IMG/VR virus record: IMGVR_UViG_3300015263_000653
Location: 1-64,000 of that record
Direction: 5' to 3' (one strand)
DNA length: 64,000 bases
From: a virus
Under the pieces are notes generated by a model. The model was not told the DNA's origin. It ran no database searches and saw only the letters and a list, made by a program, of their open reading frames with translations. The position numbers and the translations under genes are program-made. Below are positions 24 through 32,913 of the stretch, piece after piece (the first letter of the stretch is position 1; each line of letters begins with the position of its first letter).

Positions 24-743
24 ATGTTTGGACACCAAATCGAAGGCGAGCGAGTTTGTTACTGGGGCGCACGAGCCATCTTCGAGCGTGGCAATATCGA
101 CTTGCTGCACGACCGGCAGTCTGGCGATGCCAACGATGGTCTCGTCAACTGGCTCAACGCCCGTGCTCTGCCGTGGCTCCGTGAGCGAGTCAAGGAAATC
201 GGGCTGGCGACCAACGATCCGCAGGAGATCGTGCTGAGCGAATTCAAGTACGAACTGCGTGCCAGCACCCATGCGTCCTACGGCTACCTTTACATTGGTG
301 CCGTCGAATGGCCCCAAGTGCCGTGCGAGCCGCACATCAACACGGCGACCAAAGTTGAGGAACCGGTTGTCTCGTGCAACGGTCAGATGTTCGTGGTGGA
401 CCCCGGCATGGCAGAAGTTGGCACTGAAGGGGTTGTCAAAGTGAACGGCATCGGCCCGGCGAAGGTGGTCGGATATTACAATGAGAACTATGCCGATCCC
501 TACAAGCTGGCCTGCCTCATGGTGGTGATGCTCTCGCCGCCCGACTGGTGGATCGCCCAGCGTCAGGAAGACGAGATTCGCAAGCTCGTGAAGTCTGGCA
601 AGATGCCCGCCAAGCGTGGGACGAAGCCGGAACATGGTGTCGGATCGCCAGCAGCGGTCAAGGAATACCGTAAGAACTGGAAGCCGTCGCCCTGTCCAAT
701 CTGGTCGAACGACTTCAAGACAGACAAGGCCGAAGCGGCGTAA
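24..743 (+). CDS. hypothetical protein (array cassette)
   Basis: GGAGA SD upstream; stop is the TAA of the repeat; ends KAEAA. Confidence 0.85.
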   Translation: MFGHQIEGERVCYWGARAIFERGNIDLLHDRQSGDANDGLVNWLNARALPWLRERVKEIGLATNDPQEIVLSEFKYELRASTHASYGYLYIGAVEWPQVPCEPHINTATKVEEPVVSCNGQMFVVDPGMAEVGTEGVVKVNGIGPAKVVGYYNENYADPYKLACLMVVMLSPPDWWIAQRQEDEIRKLVKSGKMPAKRGTKPEHGVGSPAAVKEYRKNWKPSPCPIWSNDFKTDKAEAA

Positions 744-789
744 CACCCGCTTCGATCTTGTAACACACAACACACACTGGAGACCAACC

Positions 790-1080
790 ATGACAGCTTT
801 CGTTGACAGCCCGGAGAAGGCCCGGCAAGACGCCGCTTTGACCAACCTCTGGTATCACGAAGACCAGTTCCGTGAATTCTTCACCAGTCCGTTCGATCAG
901 TACAAAGATCGCATCGGCCAACGCTTCACGGTGTTGGGTCACGACACCGAAGCGGAACAAGACGTGGTGGACGGTGGTGGCAACTTCGAGGAAATGTACA
1001 AGATTCGCTTCGAGGATGGCACCGAGATCACCGCTTGGGGACATGAAGTCTGCCTGCTCGACTACGACAAGTGCAAGTAA
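790..1080 (+). CDS. hypothetical protein (array cassette)
   Basis: AC-rich leader + GGAGA, ATG at 790, stop in repeat. Confidence 0.85.
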   Translation: MTAFVDSPEKARQDAALTNLWYHEDQFREFFTSPFDQYKDRIGQRFTVLGHDTEAEQDVVDGGGNFEEMYKIRFEDGTEITAWGHEVCLLDYDKCK

Positions 1081-1124
1081 CACCCACTTGTTGAGAGTCA
1101 ACCACAACACACTGGAGATCGACG

Positions 1125-1505
1125 ATGAAAGCACGAAACGCCCTGAAACTGATTCTGGAACTGCACCACAACCCGGATTGCAGTCCCACAGACAAGGTGG
1201 CTCTGGCCCCAATGACGTTGCGACAAGTGCGGGAAGCATTGGCTGAAATCGACGCCGATGATCCCCGTGTCAAGATGATCCGCAACGACCCGAAGGTGGG
1301 CAAGGGAACATGCACCAGCATCGACGAAGCCAACACCGACACCGAGTTGGTGGACAGGATGAACGAAGATGGTGTAACTCCGCTCAATGCTGTAAAATGG
1401 GCGAGAGAGTGTGAAGGTCTCTCGCTGGAACAGGGACTCAACCAACGGTGGGGCGAGGATGACGACCCCCAGTTGAAACGGTATCACGAATTTCACCAAG
1501 ACTGA
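1125..1505 (+). CDS. hypothetical protein (array cassette)
   Basis: leader + SD; first gene of a two-gene unit. Confidence 0.8.
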   Translation: MKARNALKLILELHHNPDCSPTDKVALAPMTLRQVREALAEIDADDPRVKMIRNDPKVGKGTCTSIDEANTDTELVDRMNEDGVTPLNAVKWARECEGLSLEQGLNQRWGEDDDPQLKRYHEFHQD

Positions 1506-1512
1506 GGAACCA

Positions 1513-1779
1513 ATGGCGCACGACCCGGAACTCGATCACCTGATTTACGATGGCATGGCTGTGAGCGACGGTCACACCACCATCGGATCGGTACGACCGA
1601 CAGGTAATGTCAGTGAATTGCCGCCGCTCACCCCGGAGCGGTTGCAAGACTGCCTCAGAGTGTTGAAGCATCTGGAGTCGATCAACCCCAAACTGCTGAC
1701 TGATCGTGAGCGGGAATGGGCAGATTTTGTTCGCTTCAAGATCGACGACTGGAACTCCGACTATGATCCACCCGAATAA
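1513..1779 (+). CDS. hypothetical protein (array cassette)
   Basis: GAGG SD; stop in repeat. Confidence 0.8.
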   Translation: MAHDPELDHLIYDGMAVSDGHTTIGSVRPTGNVSELPPLTPERLQDCLRVLKHLESINPKLLTDREREWADFVRFKIDDWNSDYDPPE

Positions 1780-1830
1780 CACCCGCTTGGTCGGTATCAC
1801 CAACACAACTTTTGCACTGGAGACCGACCA

Positions 1831-2265
1831 ATGAACCACTCAACCGAACCGCTTAGCGACGAAGTTCTCGCCGATCACTTTCGGCAACATGCTCCCGCCA
1901 TCGTGAAGTCATTGCAGGAAGCGGGACAACGCTTCCTTGGCGACAAGGCTCCGAGCATCGAATATCTGGAAACCGATCCCGTCATCCGCATCGACGGGAG
2001 TTTGGTGGACATTTCCCCGGACGATCAAGAACAGAAGTCGATTGGCCGAACGCTCCACGTTCCCGCCTTCGCCGTGGTGACTTACAAGCACTATGCGGCG
2101 ACTCGTGAGGAACCGGAAGACTGGGATGAAGTCCATCTGGAGACCGTTCGTGGTGTCCACAACGTGGCCCATGCCGCTCTGTCACACTGGTTTCGGTTGA
2201 CGACCGAAAGCTACTTCGACGCCGAAGGTGAAGCGGCTGCCTATGCTGAAATGGAAACCGACTAA
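1831..2265 (+). CDS. hypothetical protein (array cassette)
   Basis: leader + SD; stop in repeat. Confidence 0.85.
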   Translation: MNHSTEPLSDEVLADHFRQHAPAIVKSLQEAGQRFLGDKAPSIEYLETDPVIRIDGSLVDISPDDQEQKSIGRTLHVPAFAVVTYKHYAATREEPEDWDEVHLETVRGVHNVAHAALSHWFRLTTESYFDAEGEAAAYAEMETD

Positions 2266-2301
2266 CACCCGCTTGAACAGCACAACACCACAGGAGAACA
2301 A

Positions 2302-2532
2302 ATGAGTCAGAAACCCGAACTGTATCACGGCATCGAAGTCGCAACGGATGGATGCTACCATCTGTATGTTTCGACCGATGAAAACGAAGTGAACGAACAC
2401 TTCGCCGAACTCCGCAGGATGCTCGGCGATGAAATCGAGACCTACAGTCTCGGTACGATGGAAGCAACGTCGGTCGATGAAGCACTCGACAAGATTCGGG
2501 CAGGTGACTGGGATTATACCCAGTTGTGTTGA
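2302..2532 (+). CDS. hypothetical acidic protein (array cassette)
   Basis: leader + SD. Confidence 0.8.
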   Translation: MSQKPELYHGIEVATDGCYHLYVSTDENEVNEHFAELRRMLGDEIETYSLGTMEATSVDEALDKIRAGDWDYTQLC

Positions 2533-2641
2533 TACCAATTTAGGAGACAACCCAATGCTGGGATTATACCCAGCACTGACGCCAGTGCTAACACCCGCTT
2601 ACAAGACACACAACACACAACCCCGTTCAGGAGATCAAACC

Positions 2642-3235
2642 ATGTTGGAATTGTTTCAGAAAGACGTTGCTGGTGCTCTGGCACTCGTGCTCGATCTGGC
2701 ACAACAGAATGTCATCGAAGATGATGAAATGGCCGACGAAGCCGCCGAACAGGAGAAAGCCATCGAGACGGTTCAGGAATATCTGAATCTGCTCAACGAT
2801 GGCACCGACCTGACGCAAGCCGCCGTCGCCCTCGAAGAACTCGCCGGTGTGGACGTGGATACGTTCATGGATCGGGTCGAGAACGGCAACGATGATTACC
2901 TCGGCTGGTGGAAGCCGCTCTATGAGAAGATGGCAAGGCTGATCGAAGCGGCGAAGCAACCCCGCATCCTCGAAGTCCCGTTGCAAGGTCATGTCGTTCG
3001 CCTCTATCCCAGCGGCGACGGCGCACCGAACAACAAGCCGGTCCTCAAGGTGTTCAAGCTGGTGGAAGGGGAGCGTGTTCCGCTCGCCAGCATCGAACTC
3101 TCGGATTACGCCAGCATGGCCCAATACTTCCATGAGGAAGACATGATCGAAAATCTCGGTCTGGACCGTGACAGTCGCCAGTTCAAGAGCCGGGTCAAGG
3201 CGACTCGCAAGGCACTGGGCTACTCTCAACCCTAA
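2642..3235 (+). CDS. hypothetical protein (array cassette)
   Basis: start moved to the ATG after leader/SD; stop in repeat. Confidence 0.85.
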   Translation: MLELFQKDVAGALALVLDLAQQNVIEDDEMADEAAEQEKAIETVQEYLNLLNDGTDLTQAAVALEELAGVDVDTFMDRVENGNDDYLGWWKPLYEKMARLIEAAKQPRILEVPLQGHVVRLYPSGDGAPNNKPVLKVFKLVEGERVPLASIELSDYASMAQYFHEEDMIENLGLDRDSRQFKSRVKATRKALGYSQP

Positions 3236-3301
3236 CACCCGCTTGTGAGCCGGGGAGAACTACTCTCCCCGGCATCACACAACACACAACTGGAGATCGC
3301 T

Positions 3302-3808
3302 TTGGAAAACAACCTCCTCAAAACTCGCTTCGCCGTTCTCATTGAGACCACTCGTGGCGAGATCAAGATCGAACAGGCTGCTGACGAGAACACCGTGGGC
3401 TACCACTACAAGCCCATCGACAAACACGACCCGTATTTCAATGGGCCGATCACCGTCAACCCCACTGGCACGGTCAAACGCAAGCAAGTTGAAGAGGCAT
3501 TGACCCGCTCTTGGATCGAGCCGACGCCGGAAGCCTGCGAACAGGTGGAAGACGCCGCCTGCCTCGTTCATGCTCTGGTCGCTGCCCACAAGATGGAAGA
3601 CGTTGCCGTTCAGATGACTTCCGACGAATTCGGTGGTGAGCGATTTGGACCCTACACCACGGGCGCAAATGCCCTCAGTGCCATCGTTCGGCTGGCCGAA
3701 AAAGCCGATGAAGATCACGTCGAACGGACTATCGGACTGCTCGTCAACCCGGAAGAAACTGACGACGACGAAGATGATGATGATTTCGATGTTGGTGGGG
3801 AAGGATAA
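3302..3808 (+). CDS. hypothetical protein with acidic tail (array cassette)
   Basis: TTG start after GGAGATCGC. Confidence 0.8.
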   Translation: MENNLLKTRFAVLIETTRGEIKIEQAADENTVGYHYKPIDKHDPYFNGPITVNPTGTVKRKQVEEALTRSWIEPTPEACEQVEDAACLVHALVAAHKMEDVAVQMTSDEFGGERFGPYTTGANALSAIVRLAEKADEDHVERTIGLLVNPEETDDDEDDDDFDVGGEG

Positions 3809-3977
3809 CCCATGTGTCGTTGCCGAAAGAAAACCGCCAACGTACACTGGGTGAGATACCCCAGCGGCATCTGGAAAGCGATTTGTCTGGCTTGCTTCTG
3901 TCTTCGGTCTGACAGATACACCAGATAACACCCGCTTGAACATCGTCAACAACACAACCCTTTCAGGAGATCGCAGA

Positions 3978-4766
3978 ATGAGCTTTATGAAACCCCAACG
4001 CTTCAGCGACCTGTCTCCGACCGACATCTTCTATGACACGCATCGTCATGGATTTGACAACAAGGAGCAAGTCTGGATGAAGGTCACGGGCAATGCCGAT
4101 TTCAACGTCATCAGTGACGACGGCACTCGCACCGGCAAGATGCCCGAAGACAAGATGGTGACGGTCATCCGCAAGAAAATCCACATCCTCGATCTGCGTC
4201 AAGGCGACCAGTGCTGCATGGTGGCACACCTCGGCATCGGCTATATGACCTGCACCGTGCTGAAGATCGAAGACAAAGACGGTTATCGTCACATCACGTT
4301 CATCCGGCCCCTGATTCACGCCAGCGGTTTCGGTACGACCTGTCCCAGCGGATATGTCCACACCGAGAAGTTCACGGCAATGGTTCGCTGCGATGATCGG
4401 AAGCGGGACGATTACTACCATCTGGTCGGCGTCGATACCAGTGCCGTCTATGACGAATACAAGCTGGTTCTCAGCGGTGGTGGCTGTGCCAATCGGCATC
4501 GCATGGCAGTTTACATGCAACTGATGGGCGACAAGCGAAGCATCGCCGAAATCCTCTGCATGGATGGACTCAAGATCAACTCCGAGTGTATCGGCCTGCT
4601 GATGAACAACTTCATCAAGGTGCGGGAGATTCCCCCGGAATACCCGGATCGTGATGACGAAGCCGAAAGCCGGTTCATCAAGGAACTGCAAGCCAAGGCC
4701 GATCACACGAAGTGGGAACGCAAGTACCTCGGCATGGTCGAAGCAAGCCGGGCGAAACTCGTCTGA
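3978..4766 (+). CDS. hypothetical protein (array cassette)
   Basis: leader + SD; TGA stop in repeat variant. Confidence 0.85.
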   Translation: MSFMKPQRFSDLSPTDIFYDTHRHGFDNKEQVWMKVTGNADFNVISDDGTRTGKMPEDKMVTVIRKKIHILDLRQGDQCCMVAHLGIGYMTCTVLKIEDKDGYRHITFIRPLIHASGFGTTCPSGYVHTEKFTAMVRCDDRKRDDYYHLVGVDTSAVYDEYKLVLSGGGCANRHRMAVYMQLMGDKRSIAEILCMDGLKINSECIGLLMNNFIKVREIPPEYPDRDDEAESRFIKELQAKADHTKWERKYLGMVEASRAKLV

Positions 4767-4837
4767 CACCCGCTTGGATACCATCGGGGAACAACTCCCC
4801 GATGGTATTCCAAAATTTGTATTCAGGAGACAACGGA

Positions 4838-5104: not shown

Positions 5105-5142
5105 AGCGAAGACAACACAACACCAATCAGGAGATCGCCAAC

Positions 5143-5382: not shown

Positions 5383-5425
5383 CACCCGCTTGGTGGGAGT
5401 CAACAACACACACCGGAGATCGCAA

Positions 5426-5791: not shown

Positions 5792-5836
5792 CACCCGCTT
5801 GGTCAGCGTCAACAACATAACCTCATTGGAGTCAAC

Positions 5837-7122: not shown

Positions 7123-7458
7123 ATGAACAAATCCACGAGCGATATGCTCCACCATCTGTCCAACCTCGAAGTCGATGAATTGGATGCCGCCATCAACCAT
7201 CTGACTCGTGCTCGCAAGAGCCGTGCCGAAATGCGGTCGCTAGTTGCCTTCAAGATCGGCGACAAAGTGACGTTCCCGTGGCACACGAAAGATCAGATGC
7301 ACACCGGAGAATTCGTCGGAACATATCACGAAACCGGCAAGATTTGTGTCGCCAGCGTCATCGACCACGAAGGTAAACCGTATTCTGGAACTTGTGTGGT
7401 CGATGCCCTCAAGGTCGATCACTTGGAAGGCGACGAAGACGAAAAGGAAGCGGCGTAA
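7123..7458 (+). CDS. hypothetical protein (array cassette)
   Basis: leader + SD; ends EKEAA; stop in repeat. Confidence 0.85.
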   Translation: MNKSTSDMLHHLSNLEVDELDAAINHLTRARKSRAEMRSLVAFKIGDKVTFPWHTKDQMHTGEFVGTYHETGKICVASVIDHEGKPYSGTCVVDALKVDHLEGDEDEKEAA

Positions 7459-7474
7459 CACCCGCTGGGACAGC

Positions 7475-7840
7475 ATGAACATCGAAACCATCACCAACAT
7501 CGCCAGACGACTCAATCCCGAAACTTTCATCGGGATTGACTATCAACCCGAACAAACTCAAGGAATCAAGTTGGTTGCTTGGTTCAAGTCGGATGAAGGT
7601 CTCCGGGCCTACAAACGACAGTTGATTCGGGGAGAGAACAAAGTTGGCATCGACCTCACAAGTCGCCTGTCAGACAAGCCCGAAACCTTCAACGTCATCG
7701 AGTGGCACAATCCCAGCAACTCGCTTGGAGAAAACCTCACTGCTGAACAGGTGATGGAACTGGGATACAACAATGTCATGTTCGAGCGGGGGAAACAGCG
7801 GGCATGGGTCACAAATTGCTGTGCCTTCAAGTGCCACTAA
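7475..7840 (+). CDS. hypothetical protein (array cassette)
   Basis: lies between two repeats. Confidence 0.8.
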   Translation: MNIETITNIARRLNPETFIGIDYQPEQTQGIKLVAWFKSDEGLRAYKRQLIRGENKVGIDLTSRLSDKPETFNVIEWHNPSNSLGENLTAEQVMELGYNNVMFERGKQRAWVTNCCAFKCH

Positions 7841-8300: not shown

Positions 8301-8603
8301 ATGTGGGACAAGAATTCAAAGCGTTATCACTTGGGAATCCAAGCATCGGGACACAACCTCTACGAACGTGCCCGATTGTCGGTTTACAACTCATCCAACG
8401 GCAAACTCGAAATTCACGGGTTCGCCATCGGTGGGCAGGACGTGGAAATGATCTACGACCTGTACCTGTCTCGGAGGGATGAACGCAAGCCGACCAAAGA
8501 ACAAATCTCTTTTGTGATTGCCTTCATCTTGGGCATCGCAGAAGGATCGGACCAGCGGACACGGTTGACCGGCAATGGACTGCCGGGACGATACTCCCAC
8601 TAA
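8301..8603 (+). CDS. hypothetical protein (array cassette)
   Basis: leader + SD; stop in repeat. Confidence 0.85.
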   Translation: MWDKNSKRYHLGIQASGHNLYERARLSVYNSSNGKLEIHGFAIGGQDVEMIYDLYLSRRDERKPTKEQISFVIAFILGIAEGSDQRTRLTGNGLPGRYSH

Positions 8604-8650
8604 CACCCGCTTGGCAAGAGTCAACACAACACACTCTTTCGGAGATCGCC

Positions 8651-9115
8651 ATGACTGGTGACGAATTGAAAAAGCAACTGGCCGAAAAGTATCCGCAGAT
8701 CGGTTTGACCTTCGGATACATCGGCAACCTCGAACGCTGGGGTGATGATCGCTCGTGGTATTTCTTCACGAAGGTCCGTCCGCCGCAAAGTGACAACTGC
8801 CTGTCGTTTGGTAGCTGTCGCACCGATAAGCTGGACGAGTTTATCGCCAAGGCTGAACGAGAACTGGAGAACTGGATTGTCGAGCGGGTACTCCCGCACG
8901 CCGAACACGTCTATCGCAGTTTTGACGTGGTTGTGCCGTTGCATGTCGCTCCCATCGTGGAAAAGACCCTCAAGGCGCATGGAGCAAGTTTCGGTATGCG
9001 TGGTGGTGGTCGCTTCAGTTTCTCGTTGCAACACAAAACCCTCGAAGATATTCGAGAGATCGTTACGGGTCTGGTGGGAACCGAAGGCGTGACGGTCGAG
9101 CCGTCTCGCTGGTAA
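8651..9115 (+). CDS. hypothetical protein (array cassette)
   Basis: leader + SD; stop abuts repeat. Confidence 0.85.
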   Translation: MTGDELKKQLAEKYPQIGLTFGYIGNLERWGDDRSWYFFTKVRPPQSDNCLSFGSCRTDKLDEFIAKAERELENWIVERVLPHAEHVYRSFDVVVPLHVAPIVEKTLKAHGASFGMRGGGRFSFSLQHKTLEDIREIVTGLVGTEGVTVEPSRW

Positions 9116-9132
9116 ACACCCGCTTGGAACAT

Positions 9133-9209
9133 GCCCGGCTGACCGGGCCGGTGATCGACGCCAGTACAAAAATTGTACCGGGCTGTGATCCAATGCCAGT
9201 CAGCCGGGC
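9133..9209 (+). other. non-coding hairpin cassette
   Basis: GCCCGGCTGAC…GTCAGCCGGGC closes the unit between two repeats and encloses GTACAAAAATTGTAC. Confidence 0.7.
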
Positions 9210-9259
9210 CTCTAACACCCGCTTGAAACGAGAACACAACACACTACTAGGAGATCGAG

Positions 9260-10851: not shown

Positions 10852-10870
10852 CACCCGCTTGTGAAGTGTG

Positions 10871-11042
10871 AGAGAGTGAGCAGGGGGTTGGCCGGTTGTA
10901 TCGGACAATCCTCAAGTCTGCTGAAAGCTCTGCCTGAAGTGCGCACTAGGCTACTTTGGTGAACGTGACCGAAGGAAAAGGTAGATCAGCGGAAGGGATT
11001 GGCATAAACGGGTCGATTCCCGTAACTCCCTGCCCACTCTCT
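10871..11042 (+). ncRNA. tRNA-like structured ncRNA candidate
   Basis: Closing stem AGAGAGTG-GCAGGGGGTT/AACTCCCTGC-CACTCTCT; T-arm-like ACGGG-TCGATT-CCCGT; nested internal helices; no + strand ORF. Confidence 0.6.
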
Positions 11043-13102: not shown

Positions 13103-13177
13103 GGCAACACCCGCTTGGAAGACACCGGGGAGAATCGTCTCCCCGGTCATTCCAAAAATTGTACTGGAGAACAACGC

Positions 13178-13471: not shown

Positions 13472-13693
13472 ATGAACGATTTGCTCGCTGTAATCTTCTC
13501 GCCTGTCGCTCTCAGTGATGAAAAGCTGAGAGAACTGTCGGAGCATGGTATCAAAACCGGCACGGTTGTCGTCGCCGGTTGCGAAGACCGACAATGTTTC
13601 TGGACTCCACCCGGCTCGCCGCCTACCGTCGTCTGGAAGTCGGAAGACGAAGCCCAACAATGGATGGACGAATCGTTGCTCGGAGCGGGGTAA
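13472..13693 (+). CDS. hypothetical protein (array cassette)
   Basis: leader + SD; stop in repeat. Confidence 0.8.
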   Translation: MNDLLAVIFSPVALSDEKLRELSEHGIKTGTVVVAGCEDRQCFWTPPGSPPTVVWKSEDEAQQWMDESLLGAG

Positions 13694-13741
13694 CACCCGC
13701 TTGAACAACGTACAACACACACAACACTGGAGAACAAAACC

Positions 13742-13969
13742 ATGCTCGTTCGTGACTGGGAAGGGAAAATGGTCGAAGCCCCCGCCGACCTCAAGATTGC
13801 CGTCGCAACCTACTCCGACAATTACATCGTCTGGAGTCGCACCGGCAAGCGTCATCAAGTGCGGTATGGGCTGGAAGTCACCCCCTGCGGCAACGCCAAC
13901 GATGCCGCTCACAAGTTTGGTGAGTGTGTTCAACACTTCGCCGCCTGCGAAGGGAAGCTGGACGACTAA
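13742..13969 (+). CDS. hypothetical protein (array cassette)
   Basis: leader + SD; stop in repeat. Confidence 0.85.
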   Translation: MLVRDWEGKMVEAPADLKIAVATYSDNYIVWSRTGKRHQVRYGLEVTPCGNANDAAHKFGECVQHFAACEGKLDD

Positions 13970-14699: not shown

Positions 14700-14750
14700 C
14701 ACCCGCTTGTAGGGCATCGAGAGTAAACACAACACCATCTTGGAGAACCC

Positions 14751-15029
14751 ATGACCGACCCCACCATTCGCCGTTACATGCTGGTCTCTGACTATTCCAA
14801 CAATCAGACCGATCTGGAATGGCAAAGACTTTTGGAACGGATCGCTGTGACCGAACCGACATTGCTGCTGCAAGCTGTCGTGACAAAACACGGCTTGCGT
14901 GGCACAATGAACGAATTGGCCGATGCCGTCGAAGGGATGGAAAGCGTCCCCTATCTGCCAGTCGGGGAGAAAATCCACCCGGCAGACGTGAAGACTGCCC
15001 TCAACAACATTCGGGCTGACTTGTTCTAA
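14751..15029 (+). CDS. hypothetical protein (array cassette)
   Basis: leader + SD; stop in repeat. Confidence 0.8.
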   Translation: MTDPTIRRYMLVSDYSNNQTDLEWQRLLERIAVTEPTLLLQAVVTKHGLRGTMNELADAVEGMESVPYLPVGEKIHPADVKTALNNIRADLF

Positions 15030-15082
15030 CACCCGCTTGGACTGCGGTAACACACAACACAACTTTTGGATTGGAGATCGAC

Positions 15083-16345: not shown

Positions 16346-16463
16346 GTGACACCCGCTTGGGAAGCGTGAGGCAAACGCCGCCCTGCCTCACGCTTCCCAA
16401 CTCTTTCATCTAACACCCGCTTGGGAAGCGTACAACACACAACACCTTTTACTGGAGATCGCA

Positions 16464-18136: not shown

Positions 18137-18565
18137 ATGATTCGATTCTTCGGAACTGAGACGTGTTTGCCTCGCTGGCGTGAGATCGTGATTGAACTCA
18201 CCGGCAAGCCTTGCACCGAAATCATTCCAGCACCGGCCCGCTCCAATGTCAGCTTTCAATTCGATGCCGACATTGACAACGCTGATCGGGAAACCCTGAT
18301 GGTCCCTTGGCGTCAAGAGACCGGTATCCCCGGCGTAACCGATGCTCAAAGCCGTCCCCTGCTGTGGAACTGCTGTGTCGCTTACGAAGAACACCCGCTT
18401 GGAGTGAAGACAATGGAAAAGCCCCTCAGTGCGATGGAAGAGTGGATGGTCAAATCCAATCTGCAAACGATTGCCGATGGAAGAGACGCCGCCGATCTGG
18501 TCGCTGAATTGCGCCACAATGGCTACCTGAGAGTCGCCGCCGCTGTCGAAGCCCGTTCCAAGTAA
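18137..18565 (+). CDS. hypothetical protein with an internal repeat copy (possible internal start ~18413)
   Basis: EHPLG encoded by the repeat at 18389. Confidence 0.75.
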   Translation: MIRFFGTETCLPRWREIVIELTGKPCTEIIPAPARSNVSFQFDADIDNADRETLMVPWRQETGIPGVTDAQSRPLLWNCCVAYEEHPLGVKTMEKPLSAMEEWMVKSNLQTIADGRDAADLVAELRHNGYLRVAAAVEARSK

Positions 18566-19113: not shown

Positions 19114-19419
19114 ATGACAAACAAACGCTATCACGGTCGCTGCGAAATCAAGCCGAAAACCAGAGGCAATGGAAACGAAGCCGACTTCCGGTTGCGAGAT
19201 TATCTCTCACCGGGCGGACGATACCCCTACGCCGATCTGGCTGGAGACTTGGAAGCCGCCCTCGCCGATGGTTTCACCGTCTATCTGTTCTCGGTCCCCG
19301 GCTTTATGATGCTCGCCGGGCATCCCTCGGAACCGGGCTGTGAAGACCTCGAACCGTGGCACGTCACCGACGCCGGGGATGAATACCACAAAACCGCCGC
19401 TGAGGCACTCCGGGTCTAA
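19114..19419 (+). CDS. hypothetical protein (array cassette)
   Basis: SD; stop in repeat. Confidence 0.8.
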   Translation: MTNKRYHGRCEIKPKTRGNGNEADFRLRDYLSPGGRYPYADLAGDLEAALADGFTVYLFSVPGFMMLAGHPSEPGCEDLEPWHVTDAGDEYHKTAAEALRV

Positions 19420-20572: not shown

Positions 20573-20890
20573 ATGATCGTTCACAGCAAAAGTGATGTGT
20601 TCCTCGGCGCAATTGTCACCCTCAACACTGGCGACAAGGCCGAAGTCATTGACGATCACGAAAACCATGAAACCGTGATTGTCAACCTGAACAACGTCCC
20701 GACGCCGGTACTCGTGTCCGAAGCGTTCAACCCCGAAACCGATCCCCTGTGGATCGCCGAAATCAAGCCCGAAGATAACAAGCCGCAAGAGGATGAACCC
20801 CAGCCAACACCCGCTTGTGACCTGTTCGATGAAATCTTCGATGGAATCGACCCCGATACCTTCGATGGTGACATCCTCGACCTGATCTAA
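20573..20890 (+). CDS. hypothetical acidic protein (array cassette)
   Basis: SD; internal repeat at 20805; stop in repeat. Confidence 0.8.
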   Translation: MIVHSKSDVFLGAIVTLNTGDKAEVIDDHENHETVIVNLNNVPTPVLVSEAFNPETDPLWIAEIKPEDNKPQEDEPQPTPACDLFDEIFDGIDPDTFDGDILDLI

Positions 20891-20906
20891 CACCCGCTTG
20901 GAGAGC

Positions 20907-21218
20907 ATGATGACACAGCAACTCGAAATCGACCTCGTTCCCTATGACGTGGAACAACCTGACCCGAATACGATGGTCATGGTGAGCGAATACTACGCCG
21001 ATAAACTCCGCATCAAGTCTCGATTCACTGAGAAGTATGCCGGGTTCTATCACGGTGAGAACTTCGTCACCCTTGACATTGACAACGATGAAAATACGTT
21101 GACATTCACCTGCCGAAATGAACCAATGACGCTGGATATTGTCGCCGACTTTTTCGACCGGAATATCCATGCCATCGACGAAATCGGCTATGAGTGCCTT
21201 TACCCCGAACCAGTGTAA
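20907..21218 (+). CDS. hypothetical protein (array cassette)
   Basis: SD at the repeat end; stop in repeat. Confidence 0.8.
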   Translation: MMTQQLEIDLVPYDVEQPDPNTMVMVSEYYADKLRIKSRFTEKYAGFYHGENFVTLDIDNDENTLTFTCRNEPMTLDIVADFFDRNIHAIDEIGYECLYPEPV

Positions 21219-23393: not shown

Positions 23394-23678
23394 CACCCGC
23401 TTATGGTTCATCAGGGTAAAGCCAATCCTGACAACAGTGAGCAAGTGAGGCGCAGGGGGAACGTAGGGAAAATGGGATGTTTTGGCCTAGTCCCAGTCCT
23501 TTGTGGTGTCCCCGTGGCGTCGGAGCGGCTGGGGAGCGGTGTCCAGTACAATTTTTGGACTGGTCGCCGGGATGTTTAAGATAGTTTAAGAAGCTGGCCG
23601 ATACTTATGTTATCTTAAACAACGGTGCAACACCCGCTTGTAATCTGTAAGAACGAACCTTAACTGGAGGAAAGAGCA

Positions 23679-23879
23679 ATGGCTAAGCGTAGGCGAAAGC
23701 CTCAACCCGTAGTGATGCCGAAAGCCGAGTCAAATCGGTTTACGATCACCATTGATCCGTTGAAAGTGGCGATGGGCCATCAGCCACATATCACGGGGAC
23801 CGGCGTGCATGACAACCGCCCAAAGCGGAGGCGCACAAGGTCCGCCCAAACACTCGCTTGGAAAGGCGAGTGGAACTAA
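23679..23879 (+). CDS. small basic protein (array cassette)
   Basis: GGAGG SD; GTGVHDNRPKRRRTR motif; stop in repeat. Confidence 0.8.
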   Translation: MAKRRRKPQPVVMPKAESNRFTITIDPLKVAMGHQPHITGTGVHDNRPKRRRTRSAQTLAWKGEWN

Positions 23880-23964
23880 CACCCGCTTGTAACCTACTCA
23901 GTAACTCGAAGAGTTACTGAGTAGGAAACTGGGAACCAACAAACACCCGCTTGGAGAACGACGA

Positions 23965-24216
23965 ATGACACTGAAAGAGTTTCTGAAACTGGAACGAGAA
24001 CACCGGACGGCTGGCAAGTGGTGGATGGGAACCTATGACGTTATCAACGATCATGGTGTCACCGTCAAAGTCGCCATCAAGAGCTACGGCTTTTACAACC
24101 AGATTCTCCGTCTCAACGATGATCCGGTCAATTATTGCTCTGGACACACTTGCGAGAAAGTGGGACTGATGCAAAAGCACCTGACCGAGACCATCAACCG
24201 CATCACCGCCGCCTAA
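23965..24216 (+). CDS. hypothetical protein (array cassette)
   Basis: SD; ends RITAA. Confidence 0.85.
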   Translation: MTLKEFLKLEREHRTAGKWWMGTYDVINDHGVTVKVAIKSYGFYNQILRLNDDPVNYCSGHTCEKVGLMQKHLTETINRITAA

Positions 24217-24326
24217 CACCCGCTTGTCAACCATCTGAGTAACTCTTCGAGTTACTCAGATGGGAAGCGGGACTGAGAGAACACCCGCTTGGAAGTCAAC
24301 ACAACACAACTTTTGGAGACAAGCCA

Positions 24327-24689: not shown

Positions 24690-24768
24690 CACCCGCTTGG
24701 ACACCACCTGAGTAACTCAGAGAGTTACTCAGGTGGGCAATCCACCTAACACCCACTTGGAGAGAACA

Positions 24769-25394: not shown

Positions 25395-25658
25395 GTGGAG
25401 AATCTTCAAGACTACAACGGACACCCGCTTGCAGTGGGTGACACGATCCAAAGCATCGAGAATGGTTGGCGTGGTGTCATCCAAGCCATCGGCGAAGACG
25501 AAGGCCGAAACACCATGCTGGAATGTCTCGGTGTCAACTTCTGGGATGGATCGCTGGACGAAGACGACCGGCAATGGTACTCGGCCTATGACGTGGTTTT
25601 CCAGCCCCGTCAGGAGCACCAGCCCGGCGACCCGATCAACGCCATCAACATGATGTAA
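25395..25658 (+). CDS. hypothetical protein (array cassette)
   Basis: leader + SD, GTG start; stop in repeat. Confidence 0.8.
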   Translation: MENLQDYNGHPLAVGDTIQSIENGWRGVIQAIGEDEGRNTMLECLGVNFWDGSLDEDDRQWYSAYDVVFQPRQEHQPGDPINAINMM

Positions 25659-25667
25659 CACCCGCTT

Positions 25668-25748
25668 GGGGCAGTGTGAGAAGTGAGTCCTGTGTCCGAA
25701 AGGGCAACGTAACTGCGAATTAACGCACGCCGTTCTCACACTGCCCCT
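25668..25748 (+). other. non-coding hairpin cassette
   Basis: GGGGCAGTGTGAGAA…TTCTCACACTGCCCC 15-bp stem, then TTTT and the next repeat. Confidence 0.75.
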
Positions 25749-25881
25749 TTTTAACACCCGCTTGTGGTGTATGAGGGAAAGGCAAAAGGCACTCTGAGAA
25801 CCCTACGGGGGGAATGAGAGAATCCCACGCCAGAGCCGTTGTGTCTGGGACACAGCCCCTCTAACACCCACTTGGAGGACA

Positions 25882-26403: not shown

Positions 26404-26482
26404 CACCCGCTTGAACCTCACCTCAGTAACTCAAAGAGTTACTGAGGTGGACAACCCCGAACCCATTTGGAGGAACACCCAC

Positions 26483-27521: not shown

Positions 27522-27573
27522 CACCCGCTTGGAAGGTGTCAGCAATGGGGCTGACACCTTTCTGGAGAACACA

Positions 27574-27906: not shown

Positions 27907-27957
27907 CACCCGCTTGGAGAGTGTACAACACACAACACACTTTTGGAGATCGCCATC

Positions 27958-28290: not shown

Positions 28291-28495
28291 GACACCCGCT
28301 TGGAATACACTGGGGGAGACCGGGTAAAACGCCTCGGTCCCCAACTATCAAACCTAAAGCGACCCGACAGGCCGCACCCGGTTCTCCCCCTTTGATTTAC
28401 CTTTTTCGTCACTGGGCGACGGCGAATGTCCAGAACACAACGCCAGTAACACCCGCTTGGACAGCGGTAACACAACACAACTTTTGGAGTCAGCC

Positions 28496-28675
28496 ATGAC
28501 ACCGGCTCAACGTCAGCAGCGGCAAAACATTCGCAATGCGTATCTTGTGGCATCCATCGAAGAGATGGAAGCTGGCAAGGCTCAACAGAACGATTTCGGC
28601 AAGAGCGTCCTGCAAGAGATGATCGACGAGTGCAAACAGCACGGCGTTGACAACTATGGGAAGACTCCCCTCTAA
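28496..28675 (+). CDS. hypothetical protein (array cassette)
   Basis: leader + SD; stop in repeat. Confidence 0.8.
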   Translation: MTPAQRQQRQNIRNAYLVASIEEMEAGKAQQNDFGKSVLQEMIDECKQHGVDNYGKTPL

Positions 28676-28724
28676 CACCCGCTTGGGGAGTGTACAACAC
28701 ACAACACCTTTTTCGGAGATCGTG

Positions 28725-29228
28725 ATGAAAACCGTCACACGTCAAAGCCAGTGGGGGACTGGCAACATGGTTGTCGAGATCAGCGATGGTGGGATTGACT
28801 ACTGCAACCCCGATGCACTGTCCGCAAAGTATCGGGGCGAGTTCGAGGAATTTGCCGATCCTCGTGAGGCAGTGGAAACCGCTATCACCATCGCTCAACA
28901 GTGGCAGGCGGATGCTCCCGATAAGACCATCCTGATTGACCACGGTGGCACCGGTGGAATGACCATGCCATTCGATGGGATGGAACTGGGAGAGGAAACC
29001 TACACCGCTCTGAGGGAGTGGGCAAACAGCCAGTATGAGGAACTGGAGAAATGTTGCCGCTGTGGCGACATCCTCGGCAAAGAGCGATGGACACACCCGG
29101 AACTCTGCGAAGAGGAAAAGTTCTGCTCTGAGAACTGCTGTGACAACGCCTACTGGGACATGATGAAAGAACTCGAAGAGGAGGAGGAGGAGGAGGACGA
29201 GGATGAAGAAGTAGAGGACGACGAGTAA
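28725..29228 (+). CDS. hypothetical protein with zinc-finger-like C..C…FCSENC and acidic tail
   Basis: leader + SD; stop in repeat. Confidence 0.85.
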   Translation: MKTVTRQSQWGTGNMVVEISDGGIDYCNPDALSAKYRGEFEEFADPREAVETAITIAQQWQADAPDKTILIDHGGTGGMTMPFDGMELGEETYTALREWANSQYEELEKCCRCGDILGKERWTHPELCEEEKFCSENCCDNAYWDMMKELEEEEEEEDEDEEVEDDE

Positions 29229-29296
29229 CACCCGCTTGGAAGGTGTCAGGCAGGAGAATGGGCCTGCCTGACACTTTTCACAACTCGGAGAACACC

Positions 29297-29503
29297 ATGC
29301 CAAAGGCGCAATCGCAGTACAAGCCTATCGGCCAGTATCGGTTTCCCGCAATGGGCGGGCCGACTGTGACCTATGGGCAGAAACCCTACTACGGCAGGCG
29401 GATGCAGTATTTGCCAGCCGTGAGAACGACAATGCTTCAAGTCCAAGTGATGGTTCTCGGCTCGTTGATGTGGATCAACGTGAGGCCCGAGGATCTGAAG
29501 TAA
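29297..29503 (+). CDS. hypothetical protein (array cassette)
   Basis: SD; stop in repeat. Confidence 0.75.
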   Translation: MPKAQSQYKPIGQYRFPAMGGPTVTYGQKPYYGRRMQYLPAVRTTMLQVQVMVLGSLMWINVRPEDLK

Positions 29504-29553
29504 CACCCGCTTGGGTGATGTAACATCAGCAACCCCCGTAAGGGAGAAGAACA

Positions 29554-29703
29554 GTGCATTTCGACAAACGCAAGGCCAAACGTGCCGACAAACGACGCCG
29601 AGACAAGGAGATCGAGCGTTGCAAGAGGGAGCACGGGAATCGGGGTGAAAAGAACACTCGGAAGCGTCCCCGATTCGACGAGTTTGACAGGGAAGCGGCG
29701 TAA
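29554..29703 (+). CDS. small basic peptide (49 aa, below the ORF-track cutoff)
   Basis: GGGAG SD, GTG start, MHFDKRKAKR…DREAA; stop in repeat. Confidence 0.65.
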   Translation: MHFDKRKAKRADKRRRDKEIERCKREHGNRGEKNTRKRPRFDEFDREAA

Positions 29704-29752
29704 CACCCGCTTGGGGACTGTCAATCAACAATCCAACTTTTGGAATGAAGCC

Positions 29753-29938
29753 ATGAAGGTCGCCACGCATCGTTACCCCCGGACTGCTCAGGAGTCTCGG
29801 GAAGTCATCACCGACGTTGATTTCAGCGTCAAGGCCCGCAAGCGGAAGTTGCCCAACTGCTGGGACGACAAGCCACGGGGAGACCACGATCACCGCTCGT
29901 GGAAGCGTCATCGCCGCAACCAGTGGAAGGCAGCCTAA
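29753..29938 (+). CDS. small basic protein
   Basis: RYPRT…LPNCWDD…RSWKRHRRNQWK; ends WKAA. Confidence 0.8.
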   Translation: MKVATHRYPRTAQESREVITDVDFSVKARKRKLPNCWDDKPRGDHDHRSWKRHRRNQWKAA

Positions 29939-29988
29939 CACCCGCTTGTAGGCTGTACAACACACAACACCTTTTCAGGAGTCGAGCG

Positions 29989-30360
29989 ATGAACTTCGCC
30001 GTCAACACCAAAGACAGCATCTTGGCAACCTTGCGGGATGCGATTGATTTGCAGGATTACATGGTCAAGGCCGACCACATTCTGGATGCCCTGATGACGA
30101 CGGCAGGCGTCTGGACTGAGTGTGGCTATGCCTACAAGGCGACTGAGATCGCCAATATCATCGGCCAGCGGTTCACCGATGAGATCGGCAATTGCCATCA
30201 CCACAAGACCCACGCCAAGATCGACACCATGCGGATCAAGGCGTACACCGTCGCCCGGTTCTTCTGTGAACAGCAGTACGAGTATCGGGAAGCCCAGCAA
30301 GCGGAGATCGACGCCATGTTGGGCATCGAACACAAGACCGATATGGAGCTTGCGAGCTAA
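29989..30360 (+). CDS. hypothetical protein (array cassette)
   Basis: leader + SD; stop in repeat. Confidence 0.85.
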   Translation: MNFAVNTKDSILATLRDAIDLQDYMVKADHILDALMTTAGVWTECGYAYKATEIANIIGQRFTDEIGNCHHHKTHAKIDTMRIKAYTVARFFCEQQYEYREAQQAEIDAMLGIEHKTDMELAS

Positions 30361-30472
30361 CACCCGCTTGGAAGGTGTTGAGAGGGTGCTGTCTGGAGGC
30401 GACAGCCAAGTGTCACCCAGTCTCAGGTGAAACAGCCCGATCAACACCCGCTTGTAAAGTGTCACCGGTGGC

Positions 30473-30680
30473 AAGGACGACCGGGGAGAACACTGAGACA
30501 ACCGATTAGCCCACCGCTACCTACTGTCTTTACCGAAACTGCTGTGACAGCCGCCAGTCTGATGACGGGTTTACCGTACCTTGGCCGAGGCGTTGTCCAC
30601 TGGAAACGGCGACAGCAAAAGTAGGCAGAGTGGACGGTGTGCGAATCGAGTCTCAGTGAAGTATCCCCGGTCCTCTCCTT
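30473..30680 (+). ncRNA. rod-shaped structured ncRNA candidate (~210 nt, 6S-like size and shape)
   Basis: Nested pairs AAGGA/TCCTT, GACCGGGGA/TCCCCGGTC, CACTGAGAC/GTCTCAGTG, CGATT/AATCG, CACCG/CGGTG, CCTACT/AGTAGG, TGCTGT/ACAGCA, CCAGT/ACTGG; ends at the next repeat (30681). Confidence 0.65.
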
Positions 30681-30729
30681 CAACACCCGCTTGTACAACG
30701 TAACAACAACACCTTCTGAGGGCCACAAG

Positions 30730-30870
30730 ATGAATCAGCGTCGGATCTACCAACTCATGACGGAGTTGGGCAAGGAACTGGAGTCGTACAATCCGCCCGG
30801 CAATGTCAAGTTCAAGGCGGCAATCGCTGGCCTGCGAGCGGCCATCAAGAGTTTGCGAGTGTTCTTCTAA
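30730..30870 (+). CDS. small hypothetical protein
   Basis: leader + GAGG SD; stop in repeat. Confidence 0.7.
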   Translation: MNQRRIYQLMTELGKELESYNPPGNVKFKAAIAGLRAAIKSLRVFF

Positions 30871-30921
30871 CACCCGCTTGGACAACGTAACAACACAACC
30901 CACTTCTCAGGAGTTCACACG

Positions 30922-31155
30922 ATGAACCACAATCCCGGCGTCAACCGCATGAAGAACATCGCCCGCAATGGCTTCCTGTCCTCGCTGGTCGCCAAGGCCC
31001 ACGCCGGGCAGCGGCCCGACATCACCCTCAAGCCGAAGGGCGTCACCTGTGAGGAACTGGAGAAGTACCTCAAGGCCAACAACTGCGGCTGGACCAAGCA
31101 CGCTGGCGGACGGTATGTCATCGGCTCCCTGCGACCGGCCCGCAAGGCAGCGTAA
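30922..31155 (+). CDS. hypothetical protein (array cassette)
   Basis: leader + SD; ends ARKAA. Confidence 0.8.
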   Translation: MNHNPGVNRMKNIARNGFLSSLVAKAHAGQRPDITLKPKGVTCEELEKYLKANNCGWTKHAGGRYVIGSLRPARKAA

Positions 31156-31284
31156 CACCCGCTTGGAGAGTGTCAGCCAACAACCCCTCAGTTACTCTTT
31201 GAGTAACTGAGGGGGAGCGGCTGGCCGGGACCAACACCCGCTTGGACCGTGTTAAGACCACAACACCTTTTTGGAGATCGAGTC

Positions 31285-31857
31285 ATGTTGAAGTTGTTTG
31301 TTCTGGAGTGCAGCACCGTCGAGGAACTGGAATCGGCAATGTCCCGCATGGGGCTGAGCAAGGTCAAGCCCGAACTGGCTGTGCTGGTCACGCCCGGTGG
31401 CAACGTCGAGGAGCCGACGCCAACGCCGCCTGCCCCCAAGGCTGACACCCGCTTGGAAAGTGTTGAGACGGAAACGACTCAACCGCCAGCCCCCAAGGCT
31501 GACGCCAAGCCGCCCCGCAAGTCGAAGCGGAAGGGTGGCGGGGGTGGCTTCCGCAAGGCAGCCCCCAAGACGTTCACCGATTTGTCGAAGCTGGAAGGCA
31601 TCGGCATCTATCACAAGGCCGATGGCACGCAGAAGGTTGTGGGCATCATCGGACGGAGCGAAGGCAAGGGCGGCAACGCTGGTCACGAGATTCTGTGGCT
31701 CGGCAACGTCGAGCGGAAGGACGGCGAGATTGTGTGCTGGTCCTTCGCCAACGGCGACCCGTGGACGCACAACGCCACCCGCTTCCCGGAAACGATCACC
31801 GATCTGGCCCCGTACAGCCCGGACTACGCCGAACTGCTGGTCGAGATGGTGGGCTAA
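31285..31857 (+). CDS. hypothetical protein with Pro/Lys linker containing a repeat copy
   Basis: PPAPKAD occurs twice around an in-frame DTRL; KPELAVL resembles KPELVAL of the next gene. Confidence 0.85.
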   Translation: MLKLFVLECSTVEELESAMSRMGLSKVKPELAVLVTPGGNVEEPTPTPPAPKADTRLESVETETTQPPAPKADAKPPRKSKRKGGGGGFRKAAPKTFTDLSKLEGIGIYHKADGTQKVVGIIGRSEGKGGNAGHEILWLGNVERKDGEIVCWSFANGDPWTHNATRFPETITDLAPYSPDYAELLVEMVG

Positions 31858-32008
31858 CACCCGCTTGGAAAGTGTCGAGAGGGGGACGACAACCCCTCTC
31901 GCTCTTTCCTCTCTCTCACTCTCAACTGCGAGTGAGTGAGAGGGGAGAGACAGACTAACACCCGCTTGTAAGTTGTGAGAGGACACAACACTAACCGAAA
32001 GGGATCGA

Positions 32009-32467
32009 ATGCTGCAAGAGTTGAAAGGGATCGTCGAGGGCATGGGCAAGAGCAAAGCCAAGCCCGAACTGGTCGCTCTGATCGAGCGAGCCGAGACGCA
32101 AGGCCAAGCCGCTGATCCGAAGCGATGGGCCTATGCGGGAGTCACCTTGATGGCCGTGATGAGTGCTGGACTCAACGGCTACGCCAACGCACAGCACGCA
32201 ACTGTGCCGATGGCAGGGTGGGCGATGGGGATTGCAATCCCCGCCATCGTCCTGATCCTCGCCCGTGTGGCAGGGATCAACTGGAAGGCAGGACGCAAGG
32301 CGATGGCGAAGGCCGGGGCTGGCGTCGGCATCGGATTGCTTGTCTTGTCAGTGTGGCACTGTGCTACTAGCATCAGCCTGCTGACTGGCAGCCATGTGCT
32401 ACTCGCACTGCCGATGGCACTGGCTATTGATGCGGGGCTGGTGTACTGCGAGTGCAACACATTGTAA
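32009..32467 (+). CDS. membrane protein (~4 TM), last cassette
   Basis: hydrophobic segments; stop in the final repeat. Confidence 0.85.
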   Translation: MLQELKGIVEGMGKSKAKPELVALIERAETQGQAADPKRWAYAGVTLMAVMSAGLNGYANAQHATVPMAGWAMGIAIPAIVLILARVAGINWKAGRKAMAKAGAGVGIGLLVLSVWHCATSISLLTGSHVLLALPMALAIDAGLVYCECNTL

Positions 32468-32913
32468 CACCCGCTTGTATTATGTAAGAGGGACACATGA
32501 CTCACTCGCTGAATCGCAGCGAGTGAGTGTGTTGCAAAAATTGTAATTGAGAAACTCTCAATTTTTTTTGTGCCATGTGGCCCATGGGGGAGGCACCCCC
32601 GCCGCTATGTCACCCCCCTCTCTTATATTAACAAGAAGAAATTTTTCAGACGCCTGCGCAGCAAAAACCGAAACTCCGAAACTTCTTTGGAGTGAGGCTA
32701 TATCTCAGAAAAGGAGAAGAAAGCGATGTTGCAAAAAATCCGCCGACAGAAAATCGTCGCACGCATATTGCGAGCGGTAGCCGAAGAAACTCAAGAGCCG
32801 TCTCTTCAGCAGATGAAAGAGGTGGCAGCCCTCGCCTGCAAGATTGCGGCGAAGGTCCATCCAGATCCGAAGCATCGGTGCGAGCACTGCGAACGACGGC
32901 AGCGTCAGTACGC

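Follow-up and report, generated by a model that had tools for sequence, protein, structure and literature searches.

Phage-encoded sigma factors can read promoters that consist of a −10 element only, as at the gp55-dependent late promoters of T4 (TATAAATA) and the gp36-dependent promoters of phiEco32. For huge phages, which are known almost only from metagenomes, the timing of gene expression is largely unknown. In T4-type phages, recombination between the short promoter and terminator repeats of early-promoter–stem-loop (PeSL) cassettes shuffles ORFans (PMC2839356, PMC4122927). Here we analyse the first 64 kb (64,000 nucleotides, the window) of an 89,856-bp IMG/VR viral contig, IMGVR_UViG_3300015263_000653 (G000), in which 104 copies of the 13-mer TAACACCCGCTTG, all in the same orientation, separate small genes and non-coding units. 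On the evidence of the sequence, the 13-mer is probably a phage-specific promoter that would start RNA seven bases downstream.

A dense array of co-oriented 13-mers

We counted motif copies with up to two mismatches to the 13-mer. Positions are numbered from the first base after it (+1), so that the following hexamer, N6, occupies +1 to +6; in promoter numbering, +7 is set as the start. Every one of the 104 copies lies on the + strand, between 741 and 32477, where about one would be expected, and 65 of them are exact. The median spacing is 291 bp and the density one copy per 308 bp. The rest of the 89.9-kb contig has no copy except for one two-mismatch match on the − strand. Beyond about 33 kb the genes lie on the − strand and the motif is missing; neither the − strand metabolic genes nor the tail genes of the contig carry it. 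The array and its representative sites are as follows.

741..32477, + strand: array of 104 co-oriented copies of the 13-mer, which mark off some 80 small ORFan genes and some 20 non-coding units.
8601..8621, + strand: typical site, with the 13-mer at 8601-8613, N6 GCAAGA and GT at +7/+8, followed by a CA-rich leader, a GGAGA Shine–Dalgarno (SD) sequence and ATG at 8651.
13691..13711, + strand: typical site, with the 13-mer, N6 AACAAC, GT, the leader ACAACACACACAAC and ATG at 13742; the upstream open reading frame (ORF) uses the TAA of the motif to terminate.
7456..7477, + strand: candidate leaderless site, with ATG exactly at +7; a second such site lies at 20888-20909.
32465..32600, + strand: last motif copy and end of the array, followed by hairpins, a copy of a second motif at 32535 and a T-run.

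The ORFs of 65 units terminate at the TAA or TGA with which the next motif begins, and in 51 of 83 units the leader from motif to start codon measures 30 to 45 nt. Immediately before the 13-mer there is a weak upstream extension, with C at −5 and −4 (49–51 of 104 copies), G at −3 (55 of 104) and C at −1 (54 of 104), so that the last codon of the upstream ORF is often GNC. The 74 cassette proteins of at least 45 amino acids (aa) have no paralogues among themselves, and together they matched only one Pfam domain of unknown function and five unannotated PHROGs. Scanning the window with Rfam gathering cut-offs and with ARAGORN returned no RNA family and no tRNA. CheckV rates the contig at 18% completeness, which implies a genome of about 500 kb. 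Its DNA occurs in public runs from marine-sediment metagenomes, and its far end encodes tape-measure, baseplate-J and other tail proteins.

A pyrimidine–purine step at a fixed distance

A preliminary description of this DNA had proposed a bipartite site, in which the conserved 13-mer is followed by a variable 6-nt spacer and then by a fixed GT. All of the junctions it cited are present: GCAAGA-GTCAAC (8601, 18089), AACAAC-GTACAAC (13691, 26684), GAACCT-GTTAC (21574, 21915), GATCAT-GTAAC (18563), TAGGCT-GTACAAC (29936) and TATTAT-GTAAG (32465). GT is indeed enriched at +7/+8, where it was found in 54 of 104 copies against a background expectation of 5.0 (binomial P ~1e-42). Shuffling the flanks gave 4.0 ± 1.9 and a maximum of 11 in 2000 shuffles, and at any other offset from 1 to 30 GT never exceeded 17. 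It is not fixed, however, as the remaining copies have AT (13), AC (12), AA (8), AG (4) or other dinucleotides at this position.

The constraint that holds is a pyrimidine (Y) at +6, in 82 of 104 copies, and a purine (R) at +7, in 100 of 104 (G 63, A 37), with T at +8 in 67 of 104. The YR dinucleotide at +6/+7 occurs in 82 of 104 copies against a background frequency of 0.245 (P = 3e-31). The downstream half of the proposed site is thus a Y–R step at a fixed distance, not GT. The spacer is variable in that 84 distinct hexamers occur among the 104 copies, but it is biased, with G at +1 in 60 copies and A at +2 in 74. Among ORFs validated by an SD sequence, no start codon lies before +7 and two lie exactly at +7.

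Conservation of the motif in relatives

We located relatives by scanning metagenomes and genome assemblies for the 13-mer. One of these is a 238,888-bp IMG/VR contig (G001), rated 46% complete, which has nine motif copies. Arrays were also found on short metagenomic contigs (L053, L062, L087, L088, L090, L095 and L110), of which L090 holds ten copies in 2.5 kb. Further copies lie on contigs binned with two Planctomycetota metagenome-assembled genomes (MAGs), assigned to Rhodopirellula and Thalassoglobus, and a third Planctomycetota MAG (G002) has a 13-copy array spanning 8 kb inside a 3.73-Mb contig. In a sample of 301 Planctomycetota genomes, we found an array of the exact 13-mer in G002, two copies in G003 and otherwise a single-copy, control-like level, which rules out a general host promoter. 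Scanning IMG/VR for the exact motif followed by N6 and GT gave one match per locus; only the G001 locus (L029) had further copies, and the rest resembled chance matches. A full-text literature search with the 11-mer core ACACCCGCTTG returned unrelated papers only, with no description of the motif.

The relatives contributed 42 non-redundant copies, with Y at +6 in 37. Because these copies keep the Y–R step (R at +7 in 41 of 42) but have GT in only 14 of 42, GT is not the conserved part of the site. The N6 consensus of the relatives (T-A/T-G-...) and their leaders are unlike those of the window. At orthologous junctions in L087, L088 and L095, the flanks have diverged and N6 drifts, while the 13-mer core is unchanged and the Y–R step is kept; the sole change in the core is TAA to TGA in the first triplet of one junction. 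G000 and G001 have almost no proteins in common, and synteny between them is therefore unusable.

The array of G002 lies in an island, a lower-GC stretch with integrases, a primase-helicase, DNA methyltransferases, ParB-like proteins and an ArdC-like gene. Together with the copies in MAGs, this island points to Planctomycetota as hosts and indicates that the motif is not confined to huge phages. It could represent a satellite-like or conjugative element that has integrated and makes use of the phage's promoter. In G001 and G002 the array is followed, past its distal end, by two adjacent conserved genes, which in G003 lie on the contig of the array; they are candidates for an array-linked factor.

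G002:C11:3,060,000-3,135,000 (loci L226-L229): island with the array downstream of a primase-helicase gene, an ArdC-like first cassette, a tyrosine recombinase gene in the array and a second integrase gene.
G001 826-1960 (L136), G002:C11:3069381-3071394 and G003:C41:20564-21516: conserved gene pair encoding a protein of about 234 aa with a zinc ribbon and one of about 170 aa without a family, at identities of 46 to 64%.

Evidence for a probable phage-specific promoter

The −10 element of sigma-70-type promoters extends to −7, and the starts preferred by bacterial RNA polymerase have a pyrimidine at −1 and a purine at +1. The invariant block, the exact 6-nt spacer and the Y(−1)R(+1) step of the array match this geometry of −10 element, discriminator and start. 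As in promoters of the sigma-70 family, the element ends 6 to 7 nt before a YR start at fixed spacing, lies upstream of genes and is co-oriented with them, and in relatives is placed after terminator-like hairpins. It is unlike the known −10/−35 consensus, with no TATAAT-like hexamer and no conservation at −35. The preliminary description had also considered a promoter at a fixed distance from a +1 G; such a promoter fits the data, except that the base at the start is a purine (G in 63 copies, A in 37) and not always G. When compared by eye, the spacings of sigma-54, extracytoplasmic function, FliA and MotA-box elements did not fit the positions of the conserved bases.

The positions of copies relative to hairpins also bear on this reading. 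Three motif copies in G001 lie 2 to 3 nt 3′ of strong hairpins (−30 to −38 kcal/mol), one of which has a TTGTTGCGTT tail, and the next ATG follows two of these copies after 19 to 25 nt. Such a distance leaves no room for another promoter, so a restart of transcription there must overlap the motif. Similar hairpin-then-motif contexts were seen in G002, as judged by eye. The TAA is kept in the post-hairpin copies, where it is not a stop codon, and therefore belongs to the motif itself. Between 13 and 32.8 kb of the window, sigma-70-like promoters are not enriched (4 against 7.8 ± 3.0 expected). The genes that the motif would drive in G001 encode an ArdC-like anti-restriction protein, a WGR-PARP protein, AAA ATPases and a sigma factor, a content that fits an early or anti-defence regulon.

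From the statistics of the sites, their conservation in relatives, their position with respect to hairpins and start codons, and the mosaicism of the cassettes, we infer promoter activity, a start at +7 and a candidate for the factor involved. The 13-mer would be a promoter core private to a mobile-element lineage, at −19 to −7, and N6 would be a discriminator-like spacer whose length counts more than its sequence. Transcription would start at the purine at +7, with a pyrimidine before it, and nearly every small gene or small structured RNA of the block would have its own start signal, with the motif often doubling as the stop codon of the preceding gene. The reader is likely to be the host core RNA polymerase with an element-encoded sigma-70-family factor that does not need a −35 element. 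The same sequence around every unit would offer short homology for the gain, loss and reordering of cassettes. The array block is probably early or anti-defence.

A candidate for the factor is found in G001, which encodes a divergent sigma of 299 aa (Pfam Sigma70_r2, E = 3e-7; PHROG sigma factor, 1e-9). Its gene is a cassette between two motif copies, inside the array. G001 encodes a second, FliA-like sigma of 204 aa, and three sigma-70-family proteins are encoded by LR756511.1 (W01), a complete 595-kb uncultured huge phage. When the 299-aa sigma was compared with IMG/VR, alone or as an alignment, it matched only itself.

Several observations weigh against a promoter. The motif resembles none of the known −10 elements or T7-type promoters, and its spacer is not rich in A and T. 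About 13 units have their SD sequence within N6, on the upstream side of the proposed start (for example, CTTG-GAGGAT-GTA-ATG); their genes would need read-through mRNA or leaderless translation. Some copies are followed directly by a terminator-like hairpin, which would be wasteful for a promoter, and 15 copies lie inside ORFs. In the non-coding units at 16347, 25656, 25752 and 28290, N6 is fully paired in a hairpin that starts at +1; as these hairpins pair all of its bases, N6 must have a function there, be it as RNA or as DNA. Neither a sigma gene nor an RNA polymerase gene was found on G000, which represents about 18% of the genome, and no homologue of either G001 sigma was found in the 100 kb around the G002 array. 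The link between the G001 sigma and the motif is one of proximity, which makes this protein a candidate reader. Cassette shuffling at the motif and the recombinase gene in the array of the chromosomal island also keep recombination in play. The awkward units (SD inside N6, hairpins from +1 or directly after the motif, and copies inside ORFs) are easy to explain if cassettes move as units running from N6 to the next motif and transcription reads through the junctions; they are also the main support for a role of the motif at the RNA level, which is weighed below.

Hairpins, non-coding cassettes and neighbouring genes

Several units of the array carry a hairpin and no gene, or combine a hairpin with a second motif, (T)CCAAAAWTTGTAY.

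16347..16423, + strand: non-coding, terminator-like cassette, consisting of the motif, a hairpin with a 14-bp stem from +1 and a second motif copy with the same N6 and GT (GGAAGCGT).
25656..25764, + strand: non-coding cassette, consisting of the motif, a long hairpin from +1 (−37.8 kcal/mol), CTTTT and the next motif.
23877..23953, + strand: palindromic-hairpin cassette, consisting of the motif, a hairpin of the CTCAGTAACTC-GAA-GAGTTACTGAG type and a second motif; hairpins of this family also follow the motifs at 24214, 24687, 26401 and 31153.
23893-23925, 24231-24263, 24704-24736, 26418-26450 and 31184-31215: the five palindromes.
4764..4822, + strand: cassette with the motif, a hairpin that includes N6 and the second motif, CCAAAATTTGTA, just 5′ of the SD sequence and ATG; the layout is repeated at 13105 and 19796.
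4811, 9167, 13153, 19847 and 32535 (+ strand) and 23557, 41785 and 49865 (− strand) of the window, and 64651, 78098 and 81783 (− strand) of the contig: copies of the second motif, (T)CCAAAAWTTGTAY.

The five near-identical sequences are perfect palindromes of the form CTGAGTAACTC-NNN-GAGTTACTCAG, with a loop of 3 nt, and each is enclosed by two 13-mers. Possible roles for them are those of a terminator, an RNase III-type site or an operator for a dimeric protein. The motif-bounded non-coding units at 10862-11041, 30455-30680, 9127-9212 and 31868-31955 form long, stable folds of −45 to −96 kcal/mol, several of whose closing stems end a few bases before the next motif; none has an Rfam or tRNA match. 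These units may be small RNAs expressed from the array signal. A target-site duplication was considered and rejected, as N6 and GT are common only to the pair at 16347/16411 and other adjacent pairs differ.

The second motif has 11 copies, on both strands of G000, and is also repeated in G001. In three cassettes it stands after a hairpin and just 5′ of the SD sequence and ATG, and about 40 nt separate the copy at 49865 on the − strand from an RNase H-like ORF downstream of it. The second motif has TGTAC in common with the array motif of LR756511.1 that is described below, and it may be a second promoter class.

The block that faces the array, on the − strand between 33,000 and 64,000 of the window, encodes a Rieske ring-hydroxylating oxygenase alpha subunit, an NAD-dependent epimerase/dehydratase and an M14 carboxypeptidase. 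It also encodes a nucleotidyltransferase with a poly(A)-polymerase head (CCA-adding type), an RNase H-like protein, a histidine phosphatase and a HAD domain of the RNA-repair type.

Cassette mosaicism at the motif

Other metagenomes, from sediment and soil, yielded contigs, some of them about 90% identical, with cassette-sized skips and back-joints at or beside motif copies. These contigs are of low depth, and as evidence of mosaicism they are suggestive only.

30372 to 30463; 30650 to 30866; 14709 to 15055; 29714 to 28472; 31176 to 29256: skips and back-joints in low-depth contigs.

On other assemblies, homologues of window cassettes were also found with other neighbours and in another order: the cassette at 16411 has one of 63% identity in L087, that at 18563 one of 53% in L062 and that at 23628 one of 53% in L110. 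The cassettes at 19417 and 21574 have more distant homologues in L087 and L090, again with different neighbours and order.

It is possible, albeit unlikely, that the 13-mer is both a promoter and the dedicated crossover point of a gene-capture platform used by huge phages and further mobile elements of Planctomycetota. If so, any ORF that comes to lie between two copies would gain a start signal and a stop codon, giving an integron-like function on a different principle. As phages and a chromosomal island have this private promoter in common, the factor of an infecting phage could then fire the array of the island, in the manner of a satellite or a defence system.

Alternative explanations

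A sequence-specific endonuclease, or an RNA-binding protein together with a nuclease, might cut a polycistronic transcript between +6 and +7, freeing monocistronic mRNAs and small structured RNAs. Such punctuation of the RNA would account for one site per gene and for the stop-codon overlap in 65 units. The RNA-type stems that take up N6 in some units, and the roughly 13 units with an SD sequence inside N6, imply that N6 is transcribed at least there, and a Y/R junction at a fixed distance could equally be the point of cleavage. We nevertheless regard this explanation as rather unlikely. Little read-through RNA is expected where the motif lies just 3′ of terminator-like hairpins, as in G001 and G002, and the block has no other promoter candidates from which a precursor could be made. 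The motif itself has no conserved structure. Pairing of N6 with the 3′ end of its cassette was found in 6 units against 1.7 expected, a small excess that comes from a few hairpin cassettes, and we rejected a general closing stem between the two on these grounds. To our knowledge, there is no precedent for a 13-nt linear RNA site that is cut 6 nt away, which also counts against this explanation.

The 13-mer could instead be an operator resembling the stoperators of phage L5, on which a monomeric, element-encoded repressor stops elongation and silences the block, possibly alongside a role as promoter. The length of 13 bp, the asymmetry, the intergenic placement, the overlap with stop codons and the strict co-orientation all match the L5 sites (PMC9283540), and an element integrated in a Planctomycetota chromosome, in which the motif occurs, would need silencing. 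This reading leaves unexplained the Y–R step at a fixed distance, which is kept where the N6 of the relatives differs, and the genes that directly follow a hairpin and the motif with no other promoter. The density is also far higher, at 104 sites in 32 kb against more than 20 per L5 genome, and we identified no repressor candidate. We consider a stoperator-like role improbable.

We give a similarly low probability to a promoter read by an element-encoded polymerase of the single-subunit or an unrecognised kind (T7-, N4- or YonO-like). A 13-bp block with a start 7 nt further on approaches the size of T7-group promoters (−17 to +1, with a conserved block at −17 to −5), and several large ORFs of G001 have no family match. 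The opening hexamer of the motif, TAACAC, resembles the TAATAC of T7 promoters, a likeness that we take as a lead only. Two features of T7-type promoters, the conserved AT-rich stretch at −4 to −1 and the G at +1, are missing here, and positions −6 to −1 are variable and not AT-rich. PF00940 had no match in G001, in W01 or in the 18% of the genome that G000 represents, in a search that is unvalidated in that the control genomes did not register either. There were no Rpb1 or Rpb2 domains (Rpb1_2, Rpb2_6) in G000 or G001, no DFDGD catalytic motif in a long ORF of W01 and no polymerase among ten of the largest G001 ORFs compared with PHROGs, five of which had no family. The presence of sigma genes in the relatives also speaks against a polymerase of this kind.

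In the remaining alternative, which follows the comparison of the preliminary description with tyrosine-recombinase sites of the XerCD dif/pdif kind, a tyrosine recombinase would bind the 13-mer and exchange strands near GT, as in an integron- or pdif-like cassette platform. The presence and order of cassettes do differ between related strains and contigs, with junctions at the motif, and there is a conserved dinucleotide at a fixed distance; the array of G002 holds a tyrosine recombinase gene (308 aa, PF00589 E = 8e-29), with another about 6 kb past its end. Xer/Cre/Flp-type exchange needs matching central regions, and here 84 different spacers occur among 104 sites, all of which are direct repeats, whereas the sites around pdif modules alternate in orientation. 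A dif/pdif-type site has two recombinase-binding arms of roughly 11 bp, which form an imperfect inverted repeat about a central region of 6 to 8 bp. Here there is no inverted second arm: for spacers of 0 to 12, the 13 bases that follow agree with the motif's reverse complement no better than by chance (on average 2.1 to 3.5 of 13), and after N6 only Y-R-T is conserved. GT is present in only 52% of the sites here and 33% of those in relatives, and the motif, which has no dyad symmetry, lacks the length and the R''/L''/L'/R' structure of attC, an imperfect palindrome of 57 to 141 bp that has a conserved GTT at the crossover and belongs to arrays with an intI gene and attI next to them. No PF00589 (Phage_integrase) match was found in G000, in G001 or in W01, a complete genome that nevertheless has an analogous array. 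The 13-base identity and the similar leaders could allow shuffling by ordinary recombination, as for PeSLs (PMC2839356). We consider site-specific recombination at the 13-mer very unlikely.

Comparison with known systems

The nearest catalogued relative of the contig by baseplate J, at 44% identity, is LR756511.1. The 13-mer TAACACCCGCTTG was not found in it, but its first 19.5 kb contain 47 + strand copies of another sequence, TAAAGCTGTAC(T)AAA, one per small gene and each followed by a leader and an SD sequence. Further copies occur on the − strand between 23 and 45 kb (LR756511.1 1-45,000, loci L155-L157). The layout resembles a terminal early-gene array. The two arrays are alike in having a co-oriented motif of 11 to 15 bp, one per small gene, and they differ in the motif used and in its occurrence, in LR756511.1, on the opposite strand deeper in the genome. 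We found no published description of the LR756511.1 array in the literature.

For the sediment phage of the window, the array block provides a concrete signal: an invariant 13-bp sequence at a fixed distance from a Y–R step, present in 104 copies and kept in diverged elements with a link to Planctomycetota. Should it be a promoter, it would unite at least 80 ORFan genes in one regulon, probably of an early or anti-defence kind. It would also serve both as a handle for finding the cognate sigma factor or polymerase and as a compact orthogonal promoter in a phylum for which genetic tools are scarce.

Set beside the phage sigma-dependent promoters that consist of a −10 element only, the motif is similar in being a single, class-specific block that ends about 6 to 7 nt before the start, with no −35 element, and in the presence of sigma genes in relatives. 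It differs in being GC-rich and 13 bp long, and in its far higher copy number. With the stoperators of Cluster A mycobacteriophages (PMC9283540) it has in common the 13-bp asymmetric site, the placement in short intergenic gaps and the orientation with transcription. Stoperators, however, number more than 20 per genome, are bound by a repressor and have no Y–R step at a fixed distance, whereas the window has 104 copies in 32 kb, with a start-like signature and a position after terminators. The dif/pdif and attC systems are likewise associated with arrays of small co-oriented cassettes and show a conserved element, six variable nucleotides and a conserved dinucleotide; here there is no second inverted arm, no attC hairpin, no match between spacers, only a weak GT and no recombinase on the phage contigs.

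The PeSLs of T4-type phages (Arbiol et al. 2010, PMC2839356; Comeau et al. 2014, PMC4122927) are also short conserved cassettes that flank small ORFans in hyperplastic regions, and they too combine a promoter with a terminator hairpin, with recombination between them giving rise to indels, replacements and reordering between relatives. The window array shows a promoter-like element and stem-loops flanking ORFans, with shuffling. PeSLs carry strong sigma-70 early promoters that are read by the host holoenzyme, whereas the window motif has no −35 or TATAAT-like element; it is a nearly invariant, private sequence of 13 bp that is much denser and usually provides the upstream stop codon, and most of its junctions have no stem-loop. 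The array behaves like a phage-specific promoter and a PeSL-like shuffling repeat in one, and belongs to neither the dif/pdif nor the attC family. The placement of the motif at the junctions of a highly mosaic array would extend the PeSL idea to a signal that is not of the sigma-70 type and to huge phages.

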